From: Candidatus Woesearchaeota archaeon
GTDB lineage: Archaea > Nanobdellota > Nanobdellia > Woesearchaeales > UBA525
NCBI GenBank assembly: GCA_023252315.1
Contig: JAJPEB010000001.1
Location: forward strand, 1-24,225
DNA length: 24,225 nucleotides
Direction: 5' to 3'
The translations under genes were made by a program, and so were the position numbers. The notes beneath the pieces were generated by a model, which searched no databases, was not told where the DNA came from, and saw only the letters and a program-made list of their open reading frames with translations. Below are positions 5,469-24,225 of the stretch, one piece after another (position 1 is the stretch's first letter; every line of letters begins with the position of its first letter).

Positions 5469-8027
5469 CTACGATGATTGTCTTACCAGTCTTCTAATAA
5501 ATATTTCGAGCAGGAATATGAGGATCGCGAGCGCGATGAAGGGGTTGCGCAGCTCCGTCTTCTCGACGGTCACGCGCGTGCTCGTCGTCTTGATGCGCTC
5601 GGCGATCGCGTCGACCTGGTCGGGCGTGAACATCTGCCCGCCGGAGATGCCGACCGCGGTCGCGAGGTCGGGCGAGACGCCCGCGCGCCACTGCTCCGAC
5701 TCGTCGTTCACCGCGTACGGGATGCCGCACGCGGTCGCGAAGCCCACCTGCCTGGGCGTGAACGTGAAGACGTACGAGTCGCCCGAGCTGCGCGCGAACG
5801 CGAGGGGGGTGTCGGCGCACTTGCCCGACACGGGGTCCTTGCTCGTGAACGTGACCTCCGTCTCGTGCCCCACGATCGCGGAGCCGACCTCGACCGTGAC
5901 GGGGTCCTTGCGCCGCGGGTCGCCCACCGCCCAGAGCACCGTGTTGCGCACGAGGTCGCTGTTGTTGCCCGAGAGCAGCGGCCCCAGGCCCGATGCGGTG
6001 AACACGTTGAGCGCGGCCACGCGGCCGTTGAAGTAGTTCCAGACCGTGAGCGCGGGGGCGCCCGAGTCCGTCTTCACGAGGATGCGGCTGCCGTCCTTGG
6101 GCGCGACCTCGTTGTAGCCGTTGAGCGTCGCGTCGAGGCTCACGTCCTTCGTGATGAAGTGCGTGAGGCTGAGCGTGACGAGCTGGAAGTCCTCGCCGAA
6201 GCCCTTCTCGTTCGGGTCGCCGTACTCGAGCATGAGGCGCTGCATGTTCGTCGCGCGATCGTACAGGCCGTCGCTGCGCTGCGCCATGTTGACGAGGTAC
6301 TGCTCGTCGACCGCCTTCGCGAACTGGTCCGAGCTGTCCTGCGAGCCCACGCCGATCACGTGTGTCTTGATGCCGTACTGGCGCTGCGCGTTCGCGATGA
6401 TGCTCTCGACCTGGCTCTTGGGGCCCGCGTCGATGTCGCCAAGGCCCGCGCTGAAGCGCCCGTTCGTGAGGAACACGATCGTCTTGCTGCCCGACTTGTC
6501 CTTGAGCATGTCGACGGCCGCGCGCAGCGCGAGGTCGGGCGCGGTCGTGCCGCCTCCCTGGATGCGCGAGATCCTGTCAGTCACCTCCTTCTTGTTCTGG
6601 TAGAGCGGCGCCACGTCCGCGATCTTGACCACGCTCGCGGCGATCGTCTCGTCCGCGGTGTCGTGCGACTGCCCAGTCGTGCTCACGCCGAACGCGACGA
6701 CGCCGACGTTGTTCTTGAGGTCGAGGCTGCCGATCGCCGACGCCGCCTGCGCCTTGATGATGTCGAGCACGCTCACCGTGTCCGTCACCGTCTCGAGCTT
6801 GCCCGTCTGCGGGTTCATGACCTGGCGGGTCGCGCCCGTGCTGCCGCTCACCTGGATCACGAACACGAGCGTGTTGTCGCCGAGGTTGCGCTTGGGCTTG
6901 CCGACCTTGACGGGGAGCAGCGACTCGAAGCGCGTGTTCTGGTAGCTCCCGCGATCGAAGCTGTTGAAGCCGCCCACGACCACGAGGCCGTTGCCGATCT
7001 TGCCGCCCTGCTCGTCGCGCAGGAAGTCCGCGATGCGGTCGGAGTTGCCGATGCCGCTCGCCGAGACGTCGTCCACCACGATGGCCGAGTAGGGGCTCAG
7101 GTCCGACGGCATCGACGCCGCGACGGTCGTGTCGAAGAGCCCCGAGAGCGCGGACTCGAGCGGGCCGCGCGCGCTCGCGAGCGCGAGGATCTTCGGCTTG
7201 TCGAGCACCTGGAGCACGCTGTAGTGGACGTCGTTGCCCGTGTCGCCGCCCTTGGCCGCGATGCGCGCCTCGATGCGGTGGTAGCCGACGGAGAGCTGCG
7301 GGTCGAGCGTGAGCGAGCCGATGAGCGGCGCGGAGTAGGCCTGCTTGCCGTCGATCGTGACCTGCACCGGCACGGGCTGGTTGTCCGTCGCCGTGACCTC
7401 GACCCTGATGCCCGCGGGGAAGCCGAGCGGCACGCTCGCGGGCGCGTCGATGAGCACCGCGGCGTCGTAGTGCGCGGGGGTGAGCGTGATCGCGTTGATC
7501 GTGAGGTTGTTCTGGCGCGCGACCTCGGCCACGTCCTTGAGGTCGACGCCCGTGTTCGCGTCGCCGTCCGTGATGAGGAGCAGGTGCTCGGGATGCCCGA
7601 GCGCGGCGTCGCCGACGGGGCTGAGCGTCTGCGTGCCGAACGTCTGCACGGCGGTCGGCAGGCGCGACGAGAGCTGCCTCACGAGCGCGTCGGTGAAGCC
7701 CGTGTCGTACGTCGCCATGCTCGCGCTCTTGTCGACGAGCACGAGCGCGCGGGGGCTGCCCTCGCTCTCCTTCGAGATGGTCGTGAAGGGCGTCGCGAGC
7801 GCGATGAGCACGAGCATGACCGCGGCCGAGCGCATCAGGATCACGATGAGGCGCATGCGGCGCAGCTTGCGCCTGCCGACGTCGTCGAGGCCGAAGCGCA
7901 CGAAGTCGTAGAGCACGAGCCCGACGATGAGCGCGATCGCGATGGGGATTCCCCACAGGAACGAGGGGTACTTGAAGTTCGACGCGAACGCGTGCAGCGC
8001 GTCGACCACGGGCTGGTAGACCTGCAT
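5469..8027 (-). CDS. Large membrane-anchored vWA-domain protein (two vWA-like domains, plus a probable GATase-like segment), 852 aa
   Basis: Two N-terminal TMs, LVDKSAS and LLITDG (MIDAS), second domain VIQVSGS..GGT..FLTNG, C-terminal TM. TAATG overlap with the upstream gene. Confidence 0.9.
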   Translation of the reverse strand: MQVYQPVVDALHAFASNFKYPSFLWGIPIAIALIVGLVLYDFVRFGLDDVGRRKLRRMRLIVILMRSAAVMLVLIALATPFTTISKESEGSPRALVLVDKSASMATYDTGFTDALVRQLSSRLPTAVQTFGTQTLSPVGDAALGHPEHLLLITDGDANTGVDLKDVAEVARQNNLTINAITLTPAHYDAAVLIDAPASVPLGFPAGIRVEVTATDNQPVPVQVTIDGKQAYSAPLIGSLTLDPQLSVGYHRIEARIAAKGGDTGNDVHYSVLQVLDKPKILALASARGPLESALSGLFDTTVAASMPSDLSPYSAIVVDDVSASGIGNSDRIADFLRDEQGGKIGNGLVVVGGFNSFDRGSYQNTRFESLLPVKVGKPKRNLGDNTLVFVIQVSGSTGATRQVMNPQTGKLETVTDTVSVLDIIKAQAASAIGSLDLKNNVGVVAFGVSTTGQSHDTADETIAASVVKIADVAPLYQNKKEVTDRISRIQGGGTTAPDLALRAAVDMLKDKSGSKTIVFLTNGRFSAGLGDIDAGPKSQVESIIANAQRQYGIKTHVIGVGSQDSSDQFAKAVDEQYLVNMAQRSDGLYDRATNMQRLMLEYGDPNEKGFGEDFQLVTLSLTHFITKDVSLDATLNGYNEVAPKDGSRILVKTDSGAPALTVWNYFNGRVAALNVFTASGLGPLLSGNNSDLVRNTVLWAVGDPRRKDPVTVEVGSAIVGHETEVTFTSKDPVSGKCADTPLAFARSSGDSYVFTFTPRQVGFATACGIPYAVNDESEQWRAGVSPDLATAVGISGGQMFTPDQVDAIAERIKTTSTRVTVEKTELRNPFIALAILIFLLEIFIRRLVRQSS

Positions 8028-9997
8028 TACAGGTCACCCCGGAACTTGATGAAGAAGAGCTCGAAGAGCATGATGGCGAGCCCCGCGACGATGAGGTCGA
8101 GGCTCAGATCCTTGGGCACCTTGACCTCCTGCGCGCCTGCCGCGCCCACCTGCCCCTCGTCGCCAGTCACGTTCGCCTGCGCCGCGATGTCGCTCTCGAC
8201 GCGCGCGCCCTGCTCGGTGTCGGACACGCCGAACGAGGTCGAGAGGGGGTAGAGGTTCGCCGCGAGCGTCTGCGCGGACGTCTGGTAGAGGCCGCTGCGC
8301 GCGGCGAGCACGGGCGAGGCCCTCGTGCCCGCGGGGGTCTTGACCTTGCCGCCGCCGGGCGCGTTGATGACGGATCCCGTCGCGATGTTGAGCGACATGG
8401 GGTCCACGAGCGTGAAGTCCGCGATCCGTCCCCAGATGACCGCGTAGCTCTGCGGATCGATGTCCGCCTGCGGCCTGTCCCTGATGCCGTAGTAGATGAC
8501 GGCGCCCTTGCCGAGGCGCTTCGCCGCGATGACGGGCTCGGGACCGTCGTTCGTCGCCACGCTCGCGTACACGATCGAGCCGTTGGCCGCGCGCACGCGC
8601 AAGAGCTGGCCGCCGTCGACCTGGCCGATGTCCGAGAGGCCGTGCATGAGCGAGAGCGAGTCGTTGACGATGATGTCGGTGCGCCCCGAGAGCGGGTCCG
8701 CGCCCGTCTTGGGCTCGACCGGGAGCATCCCGAGGAAGTCGACTGTGAAGAGGGAGGGCTGCGCGAACACGACGAGCACCGAGCCCTGCTCGACCTGCTC
8801 CTTGAGCCCGTTCACGACGCCGGGCAGGATGAACTGCGGGTCGATGTCCTTGACGACGTAGAGGTTGTGCTGCAGGTCGGGCACCTTGGGCGGCACGCCG
8901 TAGTCGATGCCGACGCTCGTGAACTTGTCGCCCACCGCGTCGAGCGCCGCGATGACCCTGCTCTGCCTGACCGCGCCGTCGTTCGAGATGACGAGGATCG
9001 CGATGCGCGACTGCGACGGGATGCTCACGTAGTAGTCGTTGTCCGCCATGAAGTCGTCGGGCGGCGTGAGCGTGACGCGCGTGACGCCGTTGCCGAGCGG
9101 GAGGCTCACCGAGAGCAGGCTGCCCGGCTGCCCCTTGGGGGCGAGCACGTTCTGCGGGAGCTTCGCGCTCTCGCCGTTCTCGTCGAGGCCGAACTCCGCC
9201 GGGCGGTCGTTGAAGTTCTGCACCTTGAGCTCGAGCGTCGCGTTGTTCGCGTTGAGGCGCGCGTCCACGATGCCAACGTTCTTGCCGGCGACGGGCACGC
9301 TCTTGACCTCGACGAGCGCGCCCTTGCTGCGCAGCACCTTGATCTTCGCGCCGATGAGGTCGGGGTTCTCGAGGCCGCTGAGCACGAAGTCGCCCACGAT
9401 CGTGACCTTGCTCTGCGGCCCCACGAACTGCGCAGCGAGGTCGAGCGCGGACGGGAGGTCGCCCTGGATGTCGGAGGGGTCGAGGTCGTCGATGATGCCC
9501 TTGGCCTCGCTCGCGGAGAGGCGCTGCTCGCCGCCCGAGTCGAGCACCTGCGGGCTCTCGTGCGCGAGGATCAGCACGTTGCCGCTCGCGAGGCTCCCCT
9601 TCGCGAGGTCGCGGATCGCATCAAAGCGCGCGCCGTCCTGCGCCCTCGTGCTCGCGCTGTCGTCGATCACGACCACGGACTGCTCGACGAGCGAGTCCTG
9701 GCTCACGTTGATGAACGGCTTCGCGAGCGAGACCGCGAGGAGCAGGATCGCGAGGAGCTGGATCAGGAAGAGGATGTCCTTGAAGAGCGTGCGGAAGAGG
9801 CGATGGACGTTGCTGCGCCCCATGTCCTTGAGGATGAACATGAGGCTCGGGACCGCGACGTTCGTCGGCTTGGGCCTGATGAGGTAGAGGAGGATGAGCG
9901 GGACGAGGAAGGCGAGTACGTAGAGGAGCTTGTCGGGCGCGAGGAAGAATCCGGAGAAGATTCCTGCGGGGCCGAAGATCTGCGGGAAGAGCACCAT
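8027..9997 (-). CDS. BatA-like N-terminal domain plus vWA protein, 656 aa (start revised from 10039 to ATG9997)
   Basis: LVPLILLYLIRPKP..VPSLMF (BatA-type), VVIDDSAS, C-terminal TM. GAGGTG at 10010-10015 precedes ATG9997, whereas ATG10039 overlaps the TATA box. Confidence 0.85.
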   Translation of the reverse strand: MVLFPQIFGPAGIFSGFFLAPDKLLYVLAFLVPLILLYLIRPKPTNVAVPSLMFILKDMGRSNVHRLFRTLFKDILFLIQLLAILLLAVSLAKPFINVSQDSLVEQSVVVIDDSASTRAQDGARFDAIRDLAKGSLASGNVLILAHESPQVLDSGGEQRLSASEAKGIIDDLDPSDIQGDLPSALDLAAQFVGPQSKVTIVGDFVLSGLENPDLIGAKIKVLRSKGALVEVKSVPVAGKNVGIVDARLNANNATLELKVQNFNDRPAEFGLDENGESAKLPQNVLAPKGQPGSLLSVSLPLGNGVTRVTLTPPDDFMADNDYYVSIPSQSRIAILVISNDGAVRQSRVIAALDAVGDKFTSVGIDYGVPPKVPDLQHNLYVVKDIDPQFILPGVVNGLKEQVEQGSVLVVFAQPSLFTVDFLGMLPVEPKTGADPLSGRTDIIVNDSLSLMHGLSDIGQVDGGQLLRVRAANGSIVYASVATNDGPEPVIAAKRLGKGAVIYYGIRDRPQADIDPQSYAVIWGRIADFTLVDPMSLNIATGSVINAPGGGKVKTPAGTRASPVLAARSGLYQTSAQTLAANLYPLSTSFGVSDTEQGARVESDIAAQANVTGDEGQVGAAGAQEVKVPKDLSLDLIVAGLAIMLFELFFIKFRGDL

Positions 9998-10038
9998 CTC
10001 AGGAAAGGCCACCTCTGCGGGAGACCCCCTTCTCTGCA

Positions 10039-10046
10039 TTTATAAA
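10039..10046 (-). promoter_or_regulatory. TATA box (TTTATAAA) of the vWA operon
   Basis: AT-rich octamer about 40 nt upstream of ATG9997, with an SD between them. Confidence 0.55.
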
Positions 10047-11330: not shown

Positions 11331-11476
11331 ACCGCGGCATAGCGCCTAGGAATACGCAGGTGCCGCTGAGGGATCGCAAGCTGGGCGGATAATGAGAGCG
11401 GCACAGAGACGACTACCCGGGCGCCGTCCGCAGTGCCGCACAACATTTATAATCTCACTCGCGGGGCTGTGCGCGC

Positions 11477-12241
11477 GTGAAGAAGGGATCGCGCGCCTCG
11501 GCTGCGAAGGTGACGTCCGGCAGGAAGGTCTCGATCATCATCCCCGTCTACAACGAGCGCGGCACGTTCGAGCCGCTCATGCGCAAGGTGCTCGCGGTCA
11601 AGCTGCCGGTCGAGCGCGAGATCATCATCGTCGAGAGCGGATCTACCGACGGCACGCGCGCGCTCGTGAAGAAGTACGAGAGGCGCAAGGGCGTCCATGT
11701 CCACCTCCTCGATTTCTACTGCGGCAAGGGGTACAAGGTGCGCTACGGCCTGCGCAAGGCGACGGGCGACGTCATCGTCATCCAGGACGCGGACCTCGAG
11801 TACGATCCCGCAGAGTACCCGCAGCTGCTCGCCCCGATCCTCTCGGGCCGCACGCAGTTCGTGCTCGGCTCGCGCCACCTCGGCAAGAAGACGTGGAAGA
11901 TCAGGCAGTTCGACTACTCGAAGTGGTACGGCAGGCTCGTCAACGTCGGCAGCGAAGGCTTCAACCTCCTCTTCTTCCTGCTCTACGGCGTGCGCATCAC
12001 GGACCCGCAGACGATGTACAAGGTCTTCACGAGGCAGGCGATCAGGGGGGTCGCGCTCAGGAGCAACAACTTCCAGCTCGACTGGGAGATCCTCATCAAG
12101 CTCGTCAAGCGCGGCCACGTGCCGGTCGAGGTCCCCGTGAGCTACCGCGCGCGCACCGTGGAAGAGGGCAAGAAGATCCGCCTCGTGCGCGACGGGCTGC
12201 TCGCGCTGTGGGTCATCTTCAAGTACCGGTTCATGGGATGA
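11477..12241 (+). CDS. Glycosyltransferase family 2 (DPM1/polyprenol-phosphate glycosyltransferase-like)
   Basis: [43 protein letters not shown]; TTTATAAT at 11446-11453. Confidence 0.92.
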
Positions 12242-12287
12242 GCGCAGCGGAGAAAATCTTATAATCCGGACGGCAGCCTTCGCGCGC

Positions 12288-12686
12288 ATGCCTGAAGCGT
12301 ACCCTCCCGTCTCGCGCAGCACATACCGCATCCCTCTCGCGCTGGCGGATAGCCTCTTCGGCGATCTCGAGGGGCTCGTCGCGGGCTGCGCAGGCAACGG
12401 CGGCGCGATGTCGCTGTGGGTCCGCAAGGACCGAGCGGTCGTGACGCTCGACGCCGCGCGGGCAGGAGGGGATTTCACGAGGCTCTCCGATCTCGGGAGA
12501 TACCGGGTCTCGCTCCAAGGGCCTTGCGCCCGCGACGGCAGCGACTCCGCTTCGCTCACGGAGTACGCGACGATCAGGAGGGATCTGGGAACGCTCGTCG
12601 TCACCGCACTCCCCGTCGAGCTTCCGCGCGCCGATGCGCGCACGGCGCTCATCCCCCTCCTCGAGCGCTATGCCGCCTCGAGATAG
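12288..12686 (+). CDS. Hypothetical protein, 132 aa
   Basis: TTATAAT at 12259-12265 lies 22 nt before the ATG, and the ORF fills the gap between two real genes. No family recognised. Confidence 0.6.
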   Translation: MPEAYPPVSRSTYRIPLALADSLFGDLEGLVAGCAGNGGAMSLWVRKDRAVVTLDAARAGGDFTRLSDLGRYRVSLQGPCARDGSDSASLTEYATIRRDLGTLVVTALPVELPRADARTALIPLLERYAASR

Positions 12687-12755
12687 GCTCTTCTCAGGAG
12701 CGCACGACGCCGCGTCCCGGTTACCTTTATATCCCCGTCGCGCGCCATCGCCCGC

Positions 12756-13736
12756 ATGAGAGCGATCATCACCGGCGGCGCGGGCTTCATCGGCAGCACG
12801 CTCGCGGACTTCCTGCTCGCGAAAGGGTGGCACGTCACGGCCATCGACAACATGAGCGCGGGGCGCGAGGAGTTCTACGCGCACAACCTCGGGAACCCCA
12901 GCTACCGCTTCGCGCAGCTCGACCTCAAGGACGCGCGCAAGGTCAAGGACGCCTTCGCGCAGGGCGCGGACGTCGTCTTCCACCTCGCCGCGAACGCTGA
13001 CGTCAAGGGCGGCGCCGACCACCCGACGCTCGACCTGCACGAGGGCTGCATGGCGACGTCGAACGTGCTCGAGGCGATGCGCGCGGCAGGCATCGGGAAG
13101 ATCGTCTTCTCGAGCACGGGCAGCGTGTACGGCGAGCCCGAGGTCTTCCCGACGCCCGAGGACGCGCCGTTCCCCGTCCAGACGTCCATGTACGCCGCGT
13201 CCAAGCTCTACGCCGAGGGGCTCATCTCCGCCTACTGCGAGGCGTACGGCATGCAGGCCTGGATCTACCGCTTCGTGAGCATCCTCGGCGAGCGCTACAC
13301 GCACGGCGTCGTCTTCAGCTTCTGCGCGCAGCTGCGCAAGGAGGACAGGCTCACGTTCCTCTCCGACGGCACGCCGCGCAAGTCGTACCTCTACGTCGGC
13401 GACTGCGTCGCGGGCATCTGGCACGGGCTGCAGCATGCGAAGGGGAAAGTGAACATCCTCAACCTCGGCAACGACGAGGAGATGCCCGTGCGCGACATCG
13501 CGGACATCGTCGTGCGCGAGAGCGGGAGGAAGAAGGGCGAGATCGAGTACGTGCTCGGGCAGACGCAGCGCGGCTGGATCGGCGACTCCCCGCACATCAG
13601 GCTCGACATCGCGCGCATGCGCAAGCTCGGGTGGGAGCCCGCGCTCTCGATCGAGCAGGCGATCGTGCGCACCGTGCGCTGGCTCGAGGCGAACCCCTGG
13701 GCGCTCGAGGGCAAGTACTTCCGGGGAAAGGGATGA
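12756..13736 (+). CDS. NAD-dependent epimerase/dehydratase (extended SDR)
   Basis: ITGGAGFIGS (Rossmann fold), FSSTGSVYG, YAASK (YxxxK); TTTATAT at 12726-12732. Confidence 0.95.
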   Translation: MRAIITGGAGFIGSTLADFLLAKGWHVTAIDNMSAGREEFYAHNLGNPSYRFAQLDLKDARKVKDAFAQGADVVFHLAANADVKGGADHPTLDLHEGCMATSNVLEAMRAAGIGKIVFSSTGSVYGEPEVFPTPEDAPFPVQTSMYAASKLYAEGLISAYCEAYGMQAWIYRFVSILGERYTHGVVFSFCAQLRKEDRLTFLSDGTPRKSYLYVGDCVAGIWHGLQHAKGKVNILNLGNDEEMPVRDIADIVVRESGRKKGEIEYVLGQTQRGWIGDSPHIRLDIARMRKLGWEPALSIEQAIVRTVRWLEANPWALEGKYFRGKG

Positions 13737-15097
13737 GCGGCGCGCGCGGCAGGCCCGCGGTCTTCCTCGACCGCGACGGCGTGATCAACGAGGAGATCGC
13801 GCATCCCGGGCTCGAGGACAAGGAGGGGCGCGCCATCACCGGGCCGCTCACGCCCGACGAGTTCGAGGGCGCGCTGCTGCCCGGCGTCGCCGACGCGATC
13901 GCGAGGCTCAAGCGCGCGGGCTACCTCACGGTCGTCGTGAGCGGGCAGAACAACGTCGCGAAGGGGTTCCTCTCCCGAGACGCGCTCGCCGCGATCGACG
14001 CGAAGATGCGGGGCCTGCTCGGCGTCGACGCCGCGTATTACTGCACGCACCACGAGGACTACACGGGGCCGTGCGCGTGCAAGAAGCCGAAGAAGGGGCT
14101 GCTCGAGCAGGCCGTCGCGGAGCACGGCATCGACCTCTCGCGCTCGTTCATGGTCGGCGATCGCCGCATCGACATGCAGCTCGGCGACGGGTGCGCGAGG
14201 TGCTTCTACGTCGCGAGCAGGCCGGGCGAGGACGCGCGCGAGTCCGTGGCGATGCTCCCGCTCGCGCTGCAGGCGAGGACCGCGATCGTGAGGGACCTCG
14301 GCGAGGCGGCGCGGCTCATCGTCGCGGGAGATCGGCATCCGCAGGCGATGCGCGAGGCGCTCGTGCCGTGCGCGGGCAGGGGCTCGGGCATGGGCGCGCT
14401 CACGGACGACATCCCCAAGCCCATGATCGCGTTCGAGGGGATCCCGTTCCTGCAGTTCGTGCTGCGCAACCTCTACGACCACGGCGTGCGCCGCTTCGTG
14501 ATCCCCGTCGGCTACAAGCGGGAGATCATCGAAGGGTATTTCGGCGACGGGCGCGGGTTCGGGGACGGCGTCGAGATCGTGTACGCGCAGAGCTCGGTCG
14601 AGATCGAGTCGGGCGGGAGCTTCAAGCGCGGCGCGCAGCTCGTGCAGGACGACGCGTTCGTGATGCAGTACGGCGACGCGTTTTTGCCCTGCGACCTGCG
14701 GCCCATGTGGGAGCGCTTCCTCGGCAGCGGCAAGCTCGCGATGATCGTGTGCGCGAGGCGCGGCCCGCTCAAGGAGTTCGAGAGCAGGGACAACATCATC
14801 GTCGACGGGCACGACAACATCATCGGCTACGACAAGAGGAACGAGTCGGGCAGGGCGACGCTGCTCGACGTGGGCGTCACGTTCTTCCGCAAGGGGGCGC
14901 TGCGCCACTGCGAGCCCGACGCGTTCAAGCTGGGCGACCATATCATCCCGCTGCTCGCGAGAGAAGGCGAGATCATCGCGCATATCGCGGACAGGAAGTC
15001 CGTCGGCATCGGGAACCCCGAGAAGATCCAGCGGTTCAGGGAGTTCCTCGCGACGAACGACCTGCTCGAGCGCACGCGGGCGTTCAGGAGAGCCTGA
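13733..15097 (+). CDS. gmhB: GmhB-like HAD-IIIA heptose-bisphosphate phosphatase fused to a C-terminal HddC-like sugar-1-phosphate nucleotidyltransferase, 454 aa
   Basis: FLDRDGVIN, CTHH..CACKKP and MVGDRRID, then PCAGRGSGMGALTDDIPKPM and YGD. ATG13733 overlaps the epimerase TGA (ATGA). Confidence 0.88.
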   Translation: MSGARGRPAVFLDRDGVINEEIAHPGLEDKEGRAITGPLTPDEFEGALLPGVADAIARLKRAGYLTVVVSGQNNVAKGFLSRDALAAIDAKMRGLLGVDAAYYCTHHEDYTGPCACKKPKKGLLEQAVAEHGIDLSRSFMVGDRRIDMQLGDGCARCFYVASRPGEDARESVAMLPLALQARTAIVRDLGEAARLIVAGDRHPQAMREALVPCAGRGSGMGALTDDIPKPMIAFEGIPFLQFVLRNLYDHGVRRFVIPVGYKREIIEGYFGDGRGFGDGVEIVYAQSSVEIESGGSFKRGAQLVQDDAFVMQYGDAFLPCDLRPMWERFLGSGKLAMIVCARRGPLKEFESRDNIIVDGHDNIIGYDKRNESGRATLLDVGVTFFRKGALRHCEPDAFKLGDHIIPLLAREGEIIAHIADRKSVGIGNPEKIQRFREFLATNDLLERTRAFRRA

Positions 15098-15141: not shown

Positions 15142-15945
15142 TCAGCGCTGCAGCCCTGCGTCCATCTCGAGCGTCGCGTTGCCGAGCAGCCCCGCGCCCG
15201 CGAGCGAGATCGAGGGGCGGTCGGGGCCGTACTGGTCGCCGCACTCGAGCTGCGCTCCCGAATCGGTGACGTGCGCGCGCATGCCGCGGTCCCGCTCCTG
15301 CAGGATCGCGTCCCCAAGCGACGACCGCTCGACCGTGACGTCGCCCTCGCCCGCCTCGACGTCCGCCTTCGCCGAGCGCACGTCCGTCACGCGCACGCCG
15401 CCCCATGAGCTCTTCGCGTCGACCTCCTGCGCGGACACCCCGCTGAGCACGACGTCGCCGCCGGCATCGACCGAGACCCGCTGCGCCGAGAGGCCCTCGA
15501 CGCGCGCGTCGGAGCCGCCCTGCACGACGACCCGGCCCCTGTAGCCGCTCGGCACCGTCACCTCGAGCACGAGCCGCTCCTCCTGCGGCCCTATCCTGTG
15601 GCGGAACACGCCGACGAGCCAGTCCTTGCGCACGCCGATCTCGACGCCGTTCGCGGTGGGGCGCTGCGTGATGGCCGGGGGCTTGATCGCGGGTATCGCG
15701 ACCTGCGCGCCGTGCAGCCATGCGGACGCGCCCCCTCCCTGCGCTCCCTTGACGATGACGGGATCGTCGGCCACGATCGTGATCTCGTCCACGCCCTCGA
15801 GCGGGATCCCCTCCGTGGCGCTGACCTCGCGCTCCTGCGCGGGCTGCGCGCTCGACGATGCCCATATGATCGCGGTGCCTGCGGCGATCGCGATCGCCCC
15901 CACGATGCCGAGCACGATCATCGCGATTCCCATCTTGCTTACCAT
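15142..15945 (-). CDS. DUF4097-like beta-strand-repeat protein with N-terminal TM
   Basis: N-terminal hydrophobic anchor, LVLEVTVP motif and repeated short beta-strands (GDVVLSGV, GGVRVTDV, GDVTVERS); GGAGG SD. Confidence 0.75.
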   Translation of the reverse strand: MVSKMGIAMIVLGIVGAIAIAAGTAIIWASSSAQPAQEREVSATEGIPLEGVDEITIVADDPVIVKGAQGGGASAWLHGAQVAIPAIKPPAITQRPTANGVEIGVRKDWLVGVFRHRIGPQEERLVLEVTVPSGYRGRVVVQGGSDARVEGLSAQRVSVDAGGDVVLSGVSAQEVDAKSSWGGVRVTDVRSAKADVEAGEGDVTVERSSLGDAILQERDRGMRAHVTDSGAQLECGDQYGPDRPSISLAGAGLLGNATLEMDAGLQR

Positions 15946-15973
15946 GCGCTTGCCTCCGTCCCTCTCATAGTTG

Positions 15974-16603
15974 TCACTGCCGTCTCCCCGTCTGCGTTTC
16001 CCTGCTTGCCTTCCCGTCTCCGACGAGCGACGTCCATCCTCTCCTGGTGCCGAGGGTCAGCGAGAGATGCTTGAGCGCGATGTCGTAGAGCAGCGACGCG
16101 AGCCTCATCCCCGCGATCATGAGCATCCCGCCGATGCACGCGAACCCGAATCCCACGAGCGCGCCCCCCGATGGCGCGAACTCGAGGTACATGCCCGGCG
16201 TGAGCGCGGGCCCCGCGAGGATCTCGATCATGGCGACGGCGCCGCCGATGAGCAGCGTGATGCCGGCGCCCAGGAACACGAGCAGGATGATCGCGCTGCC
16301 GATGAAGGGGCCGATGATGAGCAGCGCGCTGCGCAGGCCCGTGCCGATCGCGGAGAGCGTCGCGCGCAGGAAGTCGGGGATCCTCCTCGACGACGCCGCG
16401 GCCCTCACGTCCCTCTCCGCCGCGATGTGGCGCGCGATCGCGCGGGGGCTGCCGAGCGAGCGCGCGATCTCCTCCTCGCTCCTGCCCTGCCTGCGCCCTT
16501 CCGTGAAGTGCTCCTCGTAGTCCGCGAGGATCTCGTCGGCCTCCTCGGCGGAGAGGTGCGCGAGCTCGCGGCGCAGCTCGCCCATGAATCGGTTCTGGTT
16601 CAT
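15974..16603 (-). CDS. DUF1700 (HAAS) membrane protein, 209 aa (start revised to ATG16603)
   Basis: MNQNRFMGELRRELAHLSAEEADEILADYEEHF..GRSEEEIARSLGSP followed by TM helices; ATGA overlap with PadR, GGAGG SD. Confidence 0.88.
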   Translation of the reverse strand: MNQNRFMGELRRELAHLSAEEADEILADYEEHFTEGRRQGRSEEEIARSLGSPRAIARHIAAERDVRAAASSRRIPDFLRATLSAIGTGLRSALLIIGPFIGSAIILLVFLGAGITLLIGGAVAMIEILAGPALTPGMYLEFAPSGGALVGFGFACIGGMLMIAGMRLASLLYDIALKHLSLTLGTRRGWTSLVGDGKASRETQTGRRQ

Positions 16604-16917
16604 CTTCTCGCCTCCTTGAGCAGCGCGTCGACGCTCCTCGAGAACACATCCCACGCGCCGAGCAGCGACGCGAGCCGCTCCTTGCCGCGCGGGGTGAGCG
16701 TGTAGTACTTCCGCGTGGGGCCCTCGCTCGATTCCTTGAGGAAGGTCTCCACGTACCCCTCGTCCTTGAGCCTGCGCAGGAGAGGGTAGACCGTGCCCTC
16801 CGTGATGTCGAGCGACTTGCGGATCTCCTGCACGAGCTCGTAGCCGTAGCGCGGCCTGCGCCGCAGCAGCGCGAGCACGCACGGCTCGAGGACGCCTTTC
16901 CTGAACTGCGTATCCAT
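16600..16917 (-). CDS. PadR family transcriptional regulator
   Basis: QFRKGVLE..LALL....YGYEL, EGTVYPLLRRL, GPTRKYY.LT..G motifs. Confidence 0.95.
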   Translation of the reverse strand: MDTQFRKGVLEPCVLALLRRRPRYGYELVQEIRKSLDITEGTVYPLLRRLKDEGYVETFLKESSEGPTRKYYTLTPRGKERLASLLGAWDVFSRSVDALLKEARR

Positions 16918-18426: not shown

Positions 18427-19104
18427 TCAGTGCGTCATCCGCCACCAGACGAGCCGCGCCATGATCCGCACTCCGTCGCCCATCGTCATGCCCTTGTAGC
18501 GGTCGTGGTAGATCGTCTCGATGGGGATCTCCGCATGCGTGAGCATCGCCTTGCCCGCGCGCGCGATCATCTCGCTCTCGACGTCGTAGCCGCGGTTGCG
18601 CCAGCGCACCTTCGCGTACGCTGCCTTCGTGAGCGCGCGGTAGCCGCACAGCGGGTCGTGCAGGCGCATCCCGTAGAAGATCTCGATCACCTTGCGGAAG
18701 AGCCACCTGCCCGCCCTGCGCTCGATCGGCATGCGCCCCACGACCTTGCGCGCGCCGAACACGATGTCGTAGCCCTGCACGAGCCGTTCGAGGAAGAGCG
18801 GCAGCTCGTCCGGGCTGTGCTGCCCGTCGCCGTCGAGGAACACGATCGCCCTCGCGCCGCGCGAGAACGCGAAGTCCGCGCCCGTCTTCATCGCCGCGCC
18901 CTTGCCGAGGTTCACCGCGTGGCGCAGGACGCAGGCTCCTGCCCTGCGCGCGGCGTCGGACGTGCGGTCCCTGCTGCCGTCGTCGACGACGATGGGGGAG
19001 AAGCCCTGCGCGCGCACGAGGCGCACGACGGACGCGATGCGCCGCTCCTCGTTGCACGCCGGGATGACCACCGGGCACCTGCTCTTGGGGATCGCGCGCT
19101 CCAT
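18427..19104 (-). CDS. Glycosyltransferase family 2 (DPM1/ArnC-like)
   Basis: VVIPACNEE, VVDDGSRDRT, NLGKGAA, FLDGDGQH, HDPLCGYRA. Confidence 0.92.
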   Translation of the reverse strand: MERAIPKSRCPVVIPACNEERRIASVVRLVRAQGFSPIVVDDGSRDRTSDAARRAGACVLRHAVNLGKGAAMKTGADFAFSRGARAIVFLDGDGQHSPDELPLFLERLVQGYDIVFGARKVVGRMPIERRAGRWLFRKVIEIFYGMRLHDPLCGYRALTKAAYAKVRWRNRGYDVESEMIARAGKAMLTHAEIPIETIYHDRYKGMTMGDGVRIMARLVWWRMTH

Positions 19105-19105
19105 G

Positions 19106-19447
19106 CTACACCGAGATGACGACGATGCCCGCGACGATGAGGAGGATGCCGCACCATCGCCCGATGCGGATCTGCTCGTTGAGATGCCTGCGCGCGAGCA
19201 ATGCGGACCACACGTACGTCATGCTCGTGAGGGGGTACGCCACGGCGAGCGGGAGCACCTTGAGCGCGTAGAGGTAGAGCGGCACGCTCGCGGCGTAGAG
19301 GAGCGCGCCCGCGACGAGCTGCCTGTTCCTGAGCAGCTTCGCCGGCCTGAAGCTGAAATGGTGCGCGCCGCGCTTGAGGAAGAGCGCGCCGAGCGCGCCG
19401 ATCGCCGTCGCCATCGCCGTCACGAGCAGCGCGACGAGCGGGATCAC
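19106..19447 (-). CDS. Small 4-TM DMT/EamA (SMR/ArnE-ArnF-like) protein, 113 aa
   Basis: GTG19447 overlaps the upstream TGA; LPLAVAYPLTSMTYVW..LNEQI..GILLIVAG motif. Confidence 0.85.
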   Translation of the reverse strand: MIPLVALLVTAMATAIGALGALFLKRGAHHFSFRPAKLLRNRQLVAGALLYAASVPLYLYALKVLPLAVAYPLTSMTYVWSALLARRHLNEQIRIGRWCGILLIVAGIVVISV

Positions 19448-19836
19448 GCGGCGCCCCCGCTGCGCCCGACGAGCGCGACGCCCGCCATAATGAGCGCGAT
19501 GCCGCACAGCTCCTTCCACGCGAGGCGCTCGCCGATCGCGAAGCTCGCGAGCACGACCCACACGAACCCGAGCGCGAGCAGCGGGTGCACGACGGAGAGC
19601 TCGCCGTGGCGCAGCGCGAGCACGAGGAGCACGCCGCTCGCGCACATGAGCGCGAGGCCTGCGAGGAAGAAGGGGTCGAGGACGAGCGCCGCGATGCCCG
19701 TCTCGCGCGAGAGCGCGACCTTGAGCACCGCCTGCGCGAGCGTCATGCCTATCGTGCAGAAGACGACGAGGGCGATCGCCCTGCGCGTGGCGCCCGCGGG
19801 CTCACTTGGCCTGGGCCGCGGTGCCTTGCTTCCCAT
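19444..19836 (-). CDS. Small 4-TM DMT/EamA (SMR/ArnE-ArnF-like) protein; start uncertain
   Basis: LAQAVLK, GELSVVHPLLALGFVWV, GERL...GIALIMAG. The nearest in-frame ATG (19836) lies within the aglB 3' end. Confidence 0.8.
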   Translation of the reverse strand: MGSKAPRPRPSEPAGATRRAIALVVFCTIGMTLAQAVLKVALSRETGIAALVLDPFFLAGLALMCASGVLLVLALRHGELSVVHPLLALGFVWVVLASFAIGERLAWKELCGIALIMAGVALVGRSGGAA

Positions 19837-22675
19837 CCCAGTCAACCTTCCAGGTGATGATGCGCGAGCTCGAGAGCGTCGCGCGGTCGTCGAACAGCGT
19901 GAACCTGCGCTGGTACCTCCCGTCGAGATAGAAGAGCCGGGTGAACATGGAGTCCGCGAGCTGCGGGTCCGCGAGGAGCACGCGGCCCTCGACCGTGTCG
20001 ATCACGACCGCGACGTTCGCCGACTGCGTGTCGTTGAAGCCCATGGTCGTGATACCGTCCTTGCCCGCGATGACGAGCATGACCGGCCTGGCCTCGGTCT
20101 CCTGGATGCGCTGCCCGTCGCGGTAGAGCGCGAACACGAGCGAGCTGTTCTTGGGGCTCGTCGCGTTGTAGGTGAACGAGTCGATCGCCGTGATCGTGGT
20201 GCCCTGCTGGCTGATGCCGAGGCGGATGGGGCACGCGATCGACGAGGGGGACGAGTTCGAGGAGTTCAGGGGAGCGGAGCATGCGCGCCAGTCCTGGAGC
20301 ACGTAGCTCGGCCACGGCGAGACGTAGGCGTTCACGTCGGCTTCCGTCGGCAGCCCGACCGCCTCGAAGTACTTCTCGCGCGCCTGCGCAGGCGTGTAGT
20401 TGAGGCGCTGCGACATCGCCGCGACCGCCTGGTCCTGCGGAAGCGTGCGCGAGGTCTGCGCGACGTACGCCTTCTCGAAGTCCCAGAGGCCGAAGTGCGC
20501 CCAGACGCCCGCCTTGCCGACCATGTCGCCCGACGTGATGAAGTAGTCCTCGGGGGGGTCGCAGTGCGTGGCGTTGAGGACCGCGTCCTGCTCGGCGGCC
20601 GAGAAGCCGCTGCGGGCGAGGTACGCGCGCGCCCCCTGCTTGTCGAGCCTCACGAGGTCCGAGACGATGCGCTCCGCGTCGAGCGGGTCGCCGGTCTTTT
20701 TGAGCACGAGGCCGTACGCGCCCTGCGCGCCCTCGGGCGAGGGGTACGCGTCGGAGCCGCAGTCGAGCATGCGCAGGATGCCGACGCTCTCGTTCTCGTC
20801 GCTCGTCACGAGGGCCTTGCCGAGCCAGTAGGGGACGTGCGTGCCCTGCGTCGTGCCGTCGGCGGTCACGCGGCGCTGCGCGACGTACTTGAACCAGTGG
20901 CCGAAGTCCCACCACGAGTTGATGATCGCGTCGGGCTGCGACTGGTCGTGGATCTTCGTGAGCGCGCCCCACCAGCCGTCGTCGATCGTCGGCACGAACG
21001 TGCGCGCGGTGTCGACGCCGGCCTTGACGGGCGCGATGAGCACCACCATGAGGACGAGGAAGACGAGCACGTGCACGACGGCGGGATGCCACGACCACTC
21101 CTTCTGCGCGTACTCGCTCGCCCACTCGTGGACGCGACCCATGAGGACCGCGAGCGCGATGCCGAACGCGGTGATGAGCAGCAGGATGAAGCGCACGCCC
21201 GAGTAGGCGGCGTAGATGGACGCGACCATCCAGATGAGCACGAGCAGCGCGGGGCCGGCGTCGATGCGCTCGCCGCGCCAGAGGTCGAAGAGGAGGATCA
21301 GGCCGACGGGAAGGCCGATGAGCACCACCGCCATGAGCCTGTCCATCGCCTGCGCCTCGACGATGTAGAGCGAGATCGCGGCGCCCCCGAAGAGCATCGC
21401 GTAGTGCTCCCATCTCCACGAGCGCAGCGAGCGCGGGAGCACGAGGAGCAGCAGCCCCACGAGGCCCGCGAAGAAGAGCGCCTTGCCGCCCATCTGCGAG
21501 ACCGCGTCCGCGAGGCTCGCCTTGTTGAGCTCCGCCACGGTCGTGAGCACGTTGGGCCAGTAGTTGCTCGAGAGGGCGCTGTCGAGGCCCGCGCTCGAGC
21601 TGAGCGCCGCGAGCGGCTGCGTGAGGTAGCCGAGCACGGTGCGCTCGCCGAAGATGAGGAGGAAGACGAGCGCCGAGACGTAGAACGCGGCGAGGATCGC
21701 GGCGCCCTCGCGCACGAGGCCATCCTGCCAGATGCGGTACGTGCGCTCCCTCGCGGCGACCTGCAGCGCGCGCAGCACGAGGAAGCCCGCGAGCGCGAGG
21801 AGCACGACGAGGTAGATGAACCACCAGCCCTCCCAGAACGTCGCATGGACCGCGCACAGCAGCCCCGCGACCGCCGCGAGGATTGCCTTGCTGCGCAGGC
21901 GCTTCGCCTCGAACGCCTCGATCGCGGCCCAGAGGATAAAGAGCGGGATCACGATGTTCCAGACGTCGTTGTCCGAGCCCATGCTCCTCGAGAGGAAGAG
22001 GGGGTGGAGCGAGATGATGACCGCGGCCACGAAGCCGCCCGTGTTGCCGGCGAGCCTGCGCCCGATGAAGAACGCGGGGATGACGCCGAGCGCGCCCGCG
22101 AGCACGGGGACGAGGAAGCTCGCGGCGGGCAGCGGGTACTGCGGGTCGAAGAGCGTGATGAACTTGTAGAGGTACGCGATCATGAAGACGTGCATGGACG
22201 GGTCGGGGTCCATCGGCTGGCCCACGGGCGCGAGCACGAACGTGTCCCTGCACTTGCCATCGGGGGTGACCGCGTCGCACGCGGTGCCCTTCGTGAGCCA
22301 GTTGCGCGCGTAGCGCAGCCAGAAGTAGCTGTCGAGGTCGCCGAGGTAGGTGTGCTCCTTGCCGTCGGTGCCGTTGTAGCGCAGGCTCTCCTTGAGCTGG
22401 CCCGAGAGCTCGGCGACCGACGCGTCGAGCTGCGCCTTGTTGTCGGAGAGGAACTGGTCGGTGCGCTGGTCGATGAGCGTGTCCTTGTTCGACTGCGGCA
22501 GCGCGGGGAACTGCTGGTCGATCTGCTCGGCGAACTGCGAGCGCACGCTCGCGCGGATGTTGCTCTGCGCCCAGTCGTCGGTCACCGGCAGCGCCGCGGG
22601 CAGCATGCGGATCCAGACGACGAGCAGGAGCGCGATCGCGACGAGCGCGATCATCGCCGCGCGCTCGAGATTCAT
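19802..22675 (-). CDS. aglB: AglB/STT3 oligosaccharyltransferase (957 aa from ATG22675; natural start probably ATG22783, interrupted by TAG at 22724-22726)
   Basis: Multi-TM N-terminal half with DSYFWLR and GSDND, and INSWWDFGHW (WWDYG variant) in the soluble C-terminal domain. Confidence 0.95.
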   Translation of the reverse strand: MNLERAAMIALVAIALLLVVWIRMLPAALPVTDDWAQSNIRASVRSQFAEQIDQQFPALPQSNKDTLIDQRTDQFLSDNKAQLDASVAELSGQLKESLRYNGTDGKEHTYLGDLDSYFWLRYARNWLTKGTACDAVTPDGKCRDTFVLAPVGQPMDPDPSMHVFMIAYLYKFITLFDPQYPLPAASFLVPVLAGALGVIPAFFIGRRLAGNTGGFVAAVIISLHPLFLSRSMGSDNDVWNIVIPLFILWAAIEAFEAKRLRSKAILAAVAGLLCAVHATFWEGWWFIYLVVLLALAGFLVLRALQVAARERTYRIWQDGLVREGAAILAAFYVSALVFLLIFGERTVLGYLTQPLAALSSSAGLDSALSSNYWPNVLTTVAELNKASLADAVSQMGGKALFFAGLVGLLLLVLPRSLRSWRWEHYAMLFGGAAISLYIVEAQAMDRLMAVVLIGLPVGLILLFDLWRGERIDAGPALLVLIWMVASIYAAYSGVRFILLLITAFGIALAVLMGRVHEWASEYAQKEWSWHPAVVHVLVFLVLMVVLIAPVKAGVDTARTFVPTIDDGWWGALTKIHDQSQPDAIINSWWDFGHWFKYVAQRRVTADGTTQGTHVPYWLGKALVTSDENESVGILRMLDCGSDAYPSPEGAQGAYGLVLKKTGDPLDAERIVSDLVRLDKQGARAYLARSGFSAAEQDAVLNATHCDPPEDYFITSGDMVGKAGVWAHFGLWDFEKAYVAQTSRTLPQDQAVAAMSQRLNYTPAQAREKYFEAVGLPTEADVNAYVSPWPSYVLQDWRACSAPLNSSNSSPSSIACPIRLGISQQGTTITAIDSFTYNATSPKNSSLVFALYRDGQRIQETEARPVMLVIAGKDGITTMGFNDTQSANVAVVIDTVEGRVLLADPQLADSMFTRLFYLDGRYQRRFTLFDDRATLSSSRIITWKVDWDGKQGTAAQAK

Positions 22676-22817
22676 GCGCTTGAAGAACGACGAGGCGCCC
22701 GAGAAGTCGAGCGCGATATCCTGCTAGTCGTCGCTCGCCGCCTGCGATCCTTCGTCGTGATGCGTGTGCTTCCCTTTCCCCATTCGCACTACCCCGGCCG
22801 TCCCGGCTCCTGTCCGC

Positions 22818-22825
22818 CTTTATAT
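22818..22825. promoter_or_regulatory. TATA box upstream of aglB (minus strand ATATAAAG; also TTTATAT on plus)
   Basis: The only AT-rich box near aglB, about 35 nt upstream of ATG22783. Confidence 0.55.
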
Positions 22826-22907
22826 CGGTTGTGGCTGCGATGTCCACGAACTCTTCGCATCCCAACAACACGATACGAGCGTGACATAGGGATGACCTGC
22901 TCTTGCG

Positions 22908-23090: not shown

Positions 23091-23110
23091 TTATATACGA
23101 TAGGGAGGTG
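23091..23110 (+). promoter_or_regulatory. TATA box (TTATATA, 23091-23097) and SD-like GGAGGTG (23104-23110) of the foldase gene
   Basis: Both elements are directly visible before ATG23120. Confidence 0.55.
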
Positions 23111-23119
23111 CCTATCCGG

Positions 23120-24225
23120 ATGGTCAGGAAGACACGCGCGCCGAAAGGCGCGACACCTGCCGCAGCGTCGCGCAAGCGCGCGAAGGCATCCAGGGAGACC
23201 CGCAACGAAGGCGCGCACGACGCTCCCGAGCCGGTGCGCGCCTCGCCGCTCATGCTCGCGTTCGTCGGCGTCGTGCTCGTGGCGCTCATCGCGGGAATCG
23301 CGTACCTCGTCTTCGTGCGCACGCACCCCATGCAGGCGGCAGGCAACGAGAGCCCGACGCTCGTGACCGTGAACGGCATGCCGATCACGCAGCGCGATCT
23401 CGACTTCCAGTACGCGCTGCTCCCGCCCGAGATGCGCGCGCAGCTCTCGCGCTCCGACGTGCTCGAGCAGGTCGTGGACGAGGAGATCGTCGTGCAGGAG
23501 GCGAAGGCGTCGGGCGTCTCCGTGACGGGCGCGGACATCGACGCGCGCGTGCAGCAGATCGTCGCCGAGAGCGGCATCTCCCCGCAGGACCTCCAGCGCA
23601 ACCTCGACGCGTTCAACGTGACGATGGGCCAGTTCCAGACCCTCGTCGGACGCGAGCTCCTCATCGAGGGGCTGCTCGCCAAGCGCATCAACATCACCGA
23701 GCCCGACAACGCGACGCTGCTCGCGCTCTACGCCTCGTCGCAGGGCCAGTACGCGCAGCCCGCGCAGGCGAAGGTGCGCCACATCCTCGTGAGCGGCCAG
23801 CGCGAGAACGCGTCGCAGCTCGGCGAGCGCATCTACGAGCGGGCGCGCTCGGGCGAGGACTTCTGCGCGCTCGTCGCGAACTACACGGACGACCCCGCGA
23901 GCAACGCGACGTGCGGGGAGTACACGTTCGCGCGCGGCGAGATGGTGGCGCAGTTCGAGAACGCGAGCTTCGCGATGAAGCCCGGCGAGTTCCGCCTCGT
24001 GCAGACCGAGTACGGCTACCACGTCATCGAGAAGCTCGAGGACATCCCCGCGCACGTGAGCAGCTTCGCGGACGTGCGCGACCAGCTCGCGCAGAGCTAC
24101 ATGAGCACCGCGCGCGCGACGCAGTACCAGGCGCTCATCGCGCAGCTGCGCGAGCGCGCGACCATCGTGTACGCGCCCGGCATGGCGCCGCCCGCGCGCA
24201 ACGCCTCCGCAGCGCCGGTGGAGAC
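23120..24225 (+). CDS. Membrane-anchored PrsA/SurA-like foldase with a PpiC (parvulin) PPIase domain, 3'-partial (not in the ORF track)
   Basis: MVRKTRAPKG.., TM (MLAFVGVVLVALIAGIAYLVFV), SurA-N-like region (LVTVNG.PIT, VLEQVVDEEIVVQEA), VRHILV, EDFCALVANYTDD, GEMVAQFENASF, TEYGYHVI. No stop before the window end. Confidence 0.92.
   Translation, partial: MVRKTRAPKGATPAAASRKRAKASRETRNEGAHDAPEPVRASPLMLAFVGVVLVALIAGIAYLVFVRTHPMQAAGNESPTLVTVNGMPITQRDLDFQYALLPPEMRAQLSRSDVLEQVVDEEIVVQEAKASGVSVTGADIDARVQQIVAESGISPQDLQRNLDAFNVTMGQFQTLVGRELLIEGLLAKRINITEPDNATLLALYASSQGQYAQPAQAKVRHILVSGQRENASQLGERIYERARSGEDFCALVANYTDDPASNATCGEYTFARGEMVAQFENASFAMKPGEFRLVQTEYGYHVIEKLEDIPAHVSSFADVRDQLAQSYMSTARATQYQALIAQLRERATIVYAPGMAPPARNASAAPVE

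Follow-up and report, generated by a model that had tools for sequence, protein, structure and literature searches.

A conserved pair of short EamA-type proteins encoded beside aglB in a woesearchaeotal genome is a candidate, optional flippase for dolichyl-phosphate sugars

The window analysed here, a stretch of 24,225 nucleotides (nt) of contig JAJPEB010000001.1 from a Candidatus Woesearchaeota archaeon (assembly GCA_023252315.1), carries a block of four genes coding for the oligosaccharyltransferase AglB, two small drug/metabolite transporter (DMT) proteins, here called DMT-A and DMT-B, and a family 2 glycosyltransferase (GT2). We consider the two small proteins a candidate flippase for dolichyl-phosphate (Dol-P) sugars that is optional, i.e. 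a facultative helper and not the obligatory N-glycan flippase of the order. With a probability of about 0.55, the block is an archaeal counterpart to the three-component design of lipid-carrier glycosylation known from bacteria. A synthase, a small flippase candidate and a GT-C enzyme are co-encoded in the window and might act on one and the same substrate. Gene structure, kinship, topology bias, fold and recurrent genomic context were all established in silico.

The four genes are tightly packed, overlapping or abutting each other (Table 1), which confirms the one-strand arrangement described in the initial annotation; all four lie on the minus strand. The start of DMT-A overlaps the 3′ end of aglB by 35 nt, the GTG start codon of DMT-B and the stop codon of DMT-A overlap as GTGA, and the ATG of the GT2 gene is found 1 nt past the DMT-B stop. 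The window has a G+C content of 62–70% and spurious open reading frames are plentiful; the real genes were chosen by codon-position G+C together with family searches. To sample the pairing of DMT-A and DMT-B, we took 60 loci (±8 kb) from further genomes of the phylum, in most cases a single locus for each GTDB family; the window locus brings the total to 61. An adjacent A-to-B pair was present in 57 of the 61, the start of B overlapping the stop of A by 4 or 8 nt in most cases. The pairing exceeds chance because it recurs across different GTDB families, and a conserved, translationally coupled pair is supported. Of the 401 genomes of the phylum, 224 gave matches to a DMT-B query, as a rule two each; the tally includes the unpublished genomes G243, G244, G360 and G396, and no loci were used from these four.

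The profile searches place both proteins among short EamA transporters with kinship to ArnE and ArnF. DMT-B matched EamA (PF00892) with 41.3 bits against a gathering threshold of 28.2 bits, and DMT-A was borderline with 28.3 bits. The ArnE and ArnF models were the top NCBIfam models, matching 55–57 of the 57 members of each subunit family, as against 1–14 of 57 for individual small multidrug resistance (SMR) family models. In the window, DMT-B scored 44–45 bits with ArnE, 40–42 bits with ArnF and 17–20 bits with SMR models, and DMT-A reached 34 bits with ArnE and 19.5 bits with ArnF. Pfam Multi_Drug_Res (PF00893) was absent from the Pfam matches of either protein. Thus, the earlier description of the pair as ArnE/ArnF-like and not SMR holds. 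In addition, a motif spanning transmembrane segments (TM) 3 and 4, (A/L)YP..S..(F/Y).WV...E....W.G...I..G, is common to the pair and E. coli ArnE. DMT-A and DMT-B are clear and old paralogues (hhalign probability 100%, 25% identity). Public annotation of their homologues says merely 'EamA family transporter' or 'uncharacterized membrane protein', the Pfam TMEM234 model is also touched by these small proteins, and the ESM Atlas returned only generic short bacterial EamA clusters, one of them automatically named ArnE/F.

Alignments of the 57 sequences of each subunit show that the TM1 glutamate is absent from A and B in all 57 pairs, which extends to the whole sample what the initial annotation had noticed in the two proteins of the window. 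The AQxxLK motif that it had reported for one of them is the AQAVLK of DMT-A, in which K39 does not vary among the 57 homologues and Q35 is kept in at least 90% of them; T28 is conserved as well. The conserved lysine of DMT-B is K25. The two families carry their lysine and arginine residues (K+R) at different places: the A family averages 2.5 at its N- and 2.05 at its C-terminus, and the B family 5.0 in loop 1–2 and about 0.15 at the termini. By this charge bias, DMT-A should be oriented N-in/C-in and DMT-B N-out/C-out. The opposite biases suggest opposite membrane insertion of the two subunits, as in SMR heterodimers, and imply a putative antiparallel A/B heterodimer. Overlapping, adjacent paralogous genes with opposite K+R bias agree well with the original proposal of paired DMT subunits. 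The AlphaFold2 model of DMT-B has a pLDDT of 94.6, and its best PDB matches in Foldseek were Gdx-Clo and EmrE (6wk5, 8uwu and 7mgx; probability 1.00, TM-score 0.62–0.74), so that DMT-B is predicted to adopt the four-helix SMR/DMT fold of EmrE and Gdx.

The GT2 matched Glycos_transf_2 (PF00535) with 90.5 bits and contains the motifs DDGSRD (residue 41) and DGDGQH (residue 91). Its best NCBIfam models were AglJ (TIGR04182; 107 bits, cut-off 325) and PpgS (NF058614; 106 bits, cut-off 370), followed by a haloarchaeal Dol-P hexose transferase with 68.5 bits and ArnC with 34 bits, all below the equivalog cut-offs. No TM helix was found in it (maximal 19-residue hydropathy 1.08). The scores support assignment to the polyprenyl-phosphate sugar synthase class, not to an exact enzyme, and at the level of class they bear out the former label of a DPM1/ArnC-like GT2, with AglJ and PpgS as the top models. 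AglB gave 105.6 bits with Pfam STT3 (PF02516) and 25.6 bits with STT3-PglB_core, and carries the acidic loop motifs GDLDSYF (residue 112) and SDNDVW (residue 234) as well as the catalytic motif WWDFG (residue 588). It is the sole STT3 match in the assembly and, with 66 bits against a cut-off of 450, not a member of the archaeosortase-associated subfamily TIGR04154. We found 86 AglB homologues, mostly from Woesearchaeota.

Linkage of the pair to glycosylation genes is recurrent. An AglJ/PpgS-like GT2 lies directly downstream of the pair in 8 of the 57 loci and within 8 kb in 16. AglB is adjacent to the pair in 4 loci, within 3 kb in 8 and within 8 kb in 10; for a 1.1-Mb genome the random expectation for AglB within 8 kb is about 1.5%, and the observed proximity exceeds it roughly tenfold. 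At least five gene orders join AglB, the pair and the GT2 across lineages, namely AglB-A-B-GT2, AglB-A-B-SDR, A-B-AglB-GT2-DUF2304, AglB-GT2-DUF2304-A-B and AglB-x-x-A-B-GT2. That the arrangements differ from lineage to lineage argues for repeated juxtaposition of the pair and glycosylation genes, for which the concatenated A+B tree is too weak to serve as proof: 4 of its 54 branches are well supported, glycosylation-linked pairs and those of the other context are intermixed with about 9–10 changes, and a single origin is compatible with it. All five AglB relatives at 38–55% identity have the pair in their cluster. Three of these keep the gene order of the window, followed by DUF2304, a second GT2, a multi-TM protein of about 610 amino acids (aa), a methyltransferase and a GT4. 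In the AglB cluster of one relative (L100:9586–10226), a PIN_2/RHH toxin–antitoxin pair separates the DMT genes from the GT2; the block can thus be split.

Taken together, these features can be arranged into a sequence of steps. The soluble or peripheral GT2 would, by its family membership, load a hexose or N-acetylhexosamine from a nucleotide sugar onto dolichyl phosphate at the membrane's cytoplasmic face. DMT-A (N-in) and DMT-B (N-out) would assemble into an antiparallel heterodimer of 4+4 helices with the SMR/DMT fold. In each subunit a Gln or Gly together with a conserved Lys takes the place of the proton- or cation-binding TM1 Glu of SMR exporters, which suits an anionic phosphate-sugar head group. 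The dimer would let the Dol-P-sugar, or a short Dol-P-glycan, reach the outer leaflet down its gradient. Outside, the consuming GT-C enzyme would be AglB, for the glycosylation of Asn, and/or a PMT-type GT-C encoded elsewhere, both of which are plausible users in view of the Haloferax precedent (PMC3871713). Substrate, direction, dimerisation and consuming GT-C are what we infer from the data described above.

In Haloferax volcanii, the glycan is begun by AglJ on dolichyl monophosphate and, once flipped, is transferred by AglB (PMC3871713). A separate Dol-P-mannose branch consists of AglD, AglR and AglS, i.e. again a GT2, a flippase candidate and a GT-C, and the flippase candidates put forward, AglR and Agl15, are all Wzx-like (PMC3871713). 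Both organisms combine an AglJ-like GT2 with AglB. AglR and Agl15 differ from the short DMT pair in being 12-TM proteins of the Wzx/MOP type, and the GT2 of the window falls short of the AglJ cut-off. The woesearchaeotal assembly (1.18 Mb, 151 contigs) is 87.6% complete, and a search of it revealed no GT4/AglH-type phosphotransferase; the lack of an AglH-type enzyme, as in Haloferax, fits a Dol-monophosphate pathway begun by an AglJ-like GT2 (PMC3871713).

The closest bacterial parallel is the system of ArnC, ArnE/ArnF and ArnT, which handles undecaprenyl-phosphate-L-Ara4N in E. coli and Salmonella. There, too, the small 4-TM proteins are paralogues of about 110–130 aa encoded by adjacent, overlapping genes. 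As in the arnT-arnE-arnF order of E. coli, the archaeal pair directly follows the GT-C gene and is linked to a polyprenyl-phosphate GT2; besides the profile kinship and the motif in TM3–TM4, the lack of a central Glu is shared (PMC9574504). There are also differences. One-to-one orthology is lacking, as both archaeal subunits score best on ArnE, and the topological order is reversed, the predicted N-in subunit coming first in the archaeal pair. Dolichyl phosphate would serve as the carrier, the GT2 is without the TM helices that ArnC has at its C-terminus, and Ara4N biosynthesis genes are absent from the window. Moreover, the neighbouring GT-C is a protein oligosaccharyltransferase and not a lipid A transferase. 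The same logic of synthase, small flippase and GT-C is found in GtrA/GtrB/Gtr* and in ORF15/ORF14/ORF12 of Citrobacter (PMC11127046). The Citrobacter flippase, likewise an EmrE/ArnE-like protein with 4 TM segments, owes its assignment solely to context and has been modelled as an antiparallel dimer (PMC11127046). In bacteria, ArnE/ArnF-type flippases and three-component systems have been established largely by genetics and context (PMC9574504, PMC11127046). The bacterial three-component systems decorate polysaccharides after polymerisation and use a homodimer or a GtrA-type flippase, whereas here the linked GT-C is AglB and the flippase candidate a two-gene, presumably heterodimeric one. EmrE and Gdx (PDB 7mgx and 6wk5) share with the pair the modelled four-helix fold and the antiparallel architecture implied by the charge bias, and differ by their TM1 Glu14, which has no equivalent in the pair, and in the SMR and Multi_Drug_Res profiles, which hit the pair weakly or not at all. 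Short GT2 enzymes with a small membrane partner are found in systems of the GacI/GacJ and PpgS/Rv3632 type. The score of the window GT2 on PpgS, and the succession of GT2 and the small membrane protein DUF2304 in relatives, recall this arrangement; the DUF2304 gene of the present genome differs in lying on a separate contig, C66.

A number of observations weigh against this reading of the pair. Both proteins score well below the equivalog cut-offs for ArnE and ArnF (NF011625 and NF002816; 92 and 99 bits). The commonest context of the pair in the sampled loci is secF-secD-A-B-pyrH, often with CTP synthase upstream and no glycosylation gene nearby; SecD precedes the pair in about 29 of the 57 loci, and PyrH, the archaeal UMP kinase, follows it in about 30. 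None of three AglB relatives at 33–36% identity has the pair nearby, two of them showing the order AglB-GT2(222–225 aa)-DUF2304 and one (P0038 locus) AglB with a divergent Wzx and PMT_2. As the pair accompanies close AglB relatives and is absent from distant ones, the deeper conserved unit is AglB with the short GT2, which the pair joins in one sub-lineage. Three genomes of the same order, 99–100% complete and equipped with AglB, lack the pair even by profile search. The clusters of relatives hold extra cytoplasmic glycosyltransferases (GT4, GT9, a second GT2), so the flipped species may exceed a monosaccharide. Finally, the genome itself offers two PMT_2-type GT-C genes as possible real users (contigs C64 and C139) and two further flippase candidates, a Wzx/MOP-type protein (C117) and, with a GT2 directly upstream, a GtrA-domain protein (C19). 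The housekeeping context, the AglB genomes without the pair and the other flippase candidates limit our confidence to a moderate level and rule out an obligatory role. The initial annotation had counted on linkage to aglB and GT2. This linkage stood among relatives of at least 38% identity (5/5) and in several gene orders; it failed in the roughly one half of the loci with secDF/pyrH and in the distant relatives (0/3). The two outcomes that it had named as speaking against it were SMR clustering, which did not appear, and non-conserved linkage, which was half borne out. Its proposal of a heterodimeric flippase serving N-glycosylation is partly supported: it keeps the ArnE/ArnF kinship, the coupled pair and the GT2 class on its side, and is weakened by AglB occurring without the pair in three genomes and by the other flippase candidates.

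The gene of about 570 aa that recurs in front of the pair (upstream) in the sampled loci had been considered as an ArnT/PMT-like GT-C, and it is in fact SecD, following SecF; the 229-aa gene downstream codes for the archaeal UMP kinase. The conserved Woesearchaeales string of CTP synthase, secF, secD, DMT-A, DMT-B and pyrH, with very short gaps, is seen for instance in L034 (7221–11423), L041, L043, L045 and about 25 more loci. In the present genome, secFD is located on contig C145 without the pair. The GtrA-domain protein deserves separate mention. On C19 (3–4364, minus strand; also L098:1–1926) a frame of at least 1454 aa, running to the contig end, combines an N-terminal GtrA/DPMS-type TM domain with a CelD_N Ig-like domain and an extended extracellular region; it is unusual for a GtrA flippase-like module to be fused in this way to a large surface protein.

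Several other functions of the pair have to be considered. The same chemistry might serve another user: a PMT_2-type GT-C would take the Dol-P-monosaccharide, and a Wzx-like protein would flip a Dol-P-oligosaccharide for AglB. The PMT_2 enzyme could then decorate the transferred N-glycan or another surface target, like the final mannose added by AglD/AglR/AglS in Haloferax, a precedent that favours this alternative (PMC3871713). The genome encodes the necessary PMT_2 and Wzx/MOP proteins, the pair adjoins a convergent PMT/PMT_2 gene at the P0028 locus, AglB is found with Wzx and PMT_2 but no pair at the P0038 locus, and monosaccharide head groups are known for proteins of the ArnE/ArnF type (PMC9574504). 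On the other hand, the pair is enclosed by aglB and GT2, with overlapping frames, both in the window and in its closest relatives, and both PMT_2 genes of this genome are encoded outside the window. We regard this alternative as possible, if rather unlikely. A housekeeping transporter of a small solute, such as an amino-acid derivative, a nucleotide-related compound or a polyamine, would make the glycosylation neighbours a product of incidental shuffling in compact genomes. The prevalence of the secF-secD-A-B-pyrH order with CTP synthase often upstream, the functional diversity of the EamA family, the existence of AglB-bearing genomes without the pair and the uninformative context of the short archaeal EamA proteins of arCOG03427 and arCOG03426 (Makarova et al. 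2015, PMC5898192) are in line with such a function. It is unlikely given that AglB lies near the pair ten times more often than expected and in several gene orders, that a GT2 follows directly in 8 of the 57 loci, that the best profile kinship is to the lipid-flipping ArnE/ArnF subtype and that a TM1 carboxylate for cation or proton coupling is missing.

Transport in the opposite direction would amount to carrier recycling, the pair returning free dolichyl phosphate, released outside by AglB or another GT-C, to the cytoplasmic leaflet. Bacterial undecaprenyl phosphate is recycled by members of the DedA and DUF368 families, as known from the work on UptA and PopT, and provides a functional analogy. 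A single-copy, widespread pair in both housekeeping and glycosylation contexts, with conserved lysines that suit a phosphate head group, would match this role, but its kinship is to ArnE/ArnF and not to DedA or DUF368, and the complete AglB genomes without the pair must recycle their carrier as well; we judge recycling very improbable. Proton-coupled export of cationic drugs or guanidinium, finally, is suggested by the structural resemblance to Gdx-Clo and EmrE and by the few family members that weakly match SMR models. We disfavour it strongly and have dismissed an SMR drug exporter on three grounds: neither subunit of any of the 57 pairs has the TM1 Glu, Multi_Drug_Res is not matched, and SMR models score 17–20 bits where ArnE and ArnF score 40–45. 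An optional Dol-P-sugar flippase thus remains our preferred reading of the pair. Being facultative, located mostly beside secDF/pyrH and coexisting with other flippase candidates, the pair should not be annotated as 'the' N-glycan flippase.

Table 1. Coordinates of the aglB block and its upstream elements in the window
Feature	Position	Strand	Description
aglB	19802–22675	minus	STT3-family oligosaccharyltransferase (GT-C); 957 aa, counted from the first ATG of the unbroken frame
DMT-A	19444–19836	minus	130 aa, ATG 19836, stop 19444; 4-TM short EamA protein, ArnE/ArnF-like subunit
DMT-B	19106–19447	minus	113 aa, GTG 19447, stop 19106; 4-TM short EamA protein, ArnE/ArnF-like subunit
GT2	18427–19104	minus	225 aa, ATG 19104, stop 18427; polyprenyl-phosphate sugar synthase type, no TM segment
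Conserved 5′ extension of aglB	22676–22783	minus	ATG 22783–22781; DIALDFSG...FFKR; in-frame TAG 22726–22724
TATA-like element GATATAAAGG	22817–22826	minus	36 nt upstream of ATG 22783; read from the sequence

The 5′ end of aglB requires comment. The right end of the block in the initial annotation, position 22783, is the ATG with which a conserved N-terminal extension of AglB begins; in this genome the extension is cut by an in-frame TAG. The N-terminal motif D-x-x-L-D-F-S-G...FFK is uninterrupted in the AglB homologues P0002–P0020, and in tblastn an AglB query from the same genus aligns up to 22783. Between the TAG and the ATG at 22675 there is no ATG, GTG or TTG start, and the frame from 22675 retains all TM and catalytic parts of AglB. 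Elsewhere here TAG serves as an ordinary stop codon, e.g. that of DMT-B. The TAG in aglB reflects either a mistake of assembly or consensus calling or a genuine, recent nonsense mutation, in which case translation would restart at 22675. Judged by the usual layout of archaeal promoters, the element GATATAAAGG is likely the promoter of the aglB operon. Divergent from aglB, and running off the window end, is a gene for a protein with SurA_N and a PpiC-type rotamase domain (23108–24223, plus strand). Three relatives (L099, L100 and the P0003 locus) have the same SurA_N/PpiC-type gene next to AglB, again divergently, an arrangement suggesting that an extracytoplasmic foldase and the oligosaccharyltransferase are kept together as a conserved pair.

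The remaining members of the relatives' clusters are dispersed in this genome. DUF2304, the protein of about 610 aa and the GT4s are encoded on contig C66, and the second GT2, which follows DUF2304 in relatives, corresponds to the AglJ-like GT2 at 11453–12241 (plus strand) of the window. The ancestral cluster is thus scattered here, and aglB-A-B-GT2 stayed together. On the plus strand (11453–15097) the AglJ-like GT2 is followed by genes for an SDR epimerase (12756–13736) and a HAD-nucleotidyltransferase fusion (13631–15097), the latter two probably supplying sugar nucleotides for the same glycan. A multi-TM protein of about 600–650 aa occurs in AglB clusters near a methyltransferase and a GT4 (L033:10065–11891, plus strand; C66:3675–5576, minus strand; L036:5635–7575). 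It has no match in Pfam or NCBIfam and could be an unrecognised glycan-processing membrane enzyme or transporter.

Two further gene groups were noticed in the window. A Bat/MoxR-type set, here in an archaeon, occupies 1855–10039 on the minus strand and includes a 674-aa fusion of MoxR AAA_3 and DUF58 (1855–3879), DUF7502, an 852-aa VWA protein and a BatA-N/DUF7406–7408 protein. At 15142–16917, also on the minus strand, a PadR regulator (16600–16917), a HAAS-domain protein and a DUF4097 'toastrack' protein are encoded in a row, which looks like a PadR-linked membrane stress-sensing cassette. The assembly encodes ribosomal protein S3Ae, archaea-only in our control set, and contains no small-subunit rRNA. 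A bacterial source, which the SurA-like, BatA and MoxR genes of the window had brought to mind, was rejected in view of S3Ae and of the AglB homologues, the named ones of which are from Candidatus Woesearchaeota.

Our literature search found no paper tying short archaeal EamA proteins to AglB. Short EamA-type DMT proteins of arCOG03427 and arCOG03426 (COG2510) are widespread in archaea and have been recorded with no contextual clue (Makarova et al. 2015, PMC5898192). We set them beside the window pair by description only, as short proteins with 4–5 TM segments; the difference is that in part of the Woesearchaeota the context ties the family to GT2 and AglB. New in this study are the secDF/pyrH context of the pair, the topology test and the in-frame TAG in the 5′ extension of aglB. 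The broader idea that a short-DMT heterodimer is the general Dol-P-sugar flippase of DPANN, and perhaps of other archaea with arCOG03427 and arCOG03426, seems quite doubtful to us.

In summary, the proteins that move Dol-P-linked sugars are poorly defined in archaea and in the eukaryotic endoplasmic reticulum (ER), and the pair presented here offers a small, concrete target of about 240 residues that can be expressed, reconstituted and mutated, for instance at its two conserved lysines. If the broader idea of a general flippase were true, the family would supply a first example of the ATP-independent Dol-P-hexose flippases that have long been sought, and its eukaryotic 4-TM relative TMEM234 would become a candidate Dol-P-sugar flippase of the ER. 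AglB in reduced genomes could then run a minimal N-glycosylation pathway of three genes, comprising the GT2, the pair and AglB.

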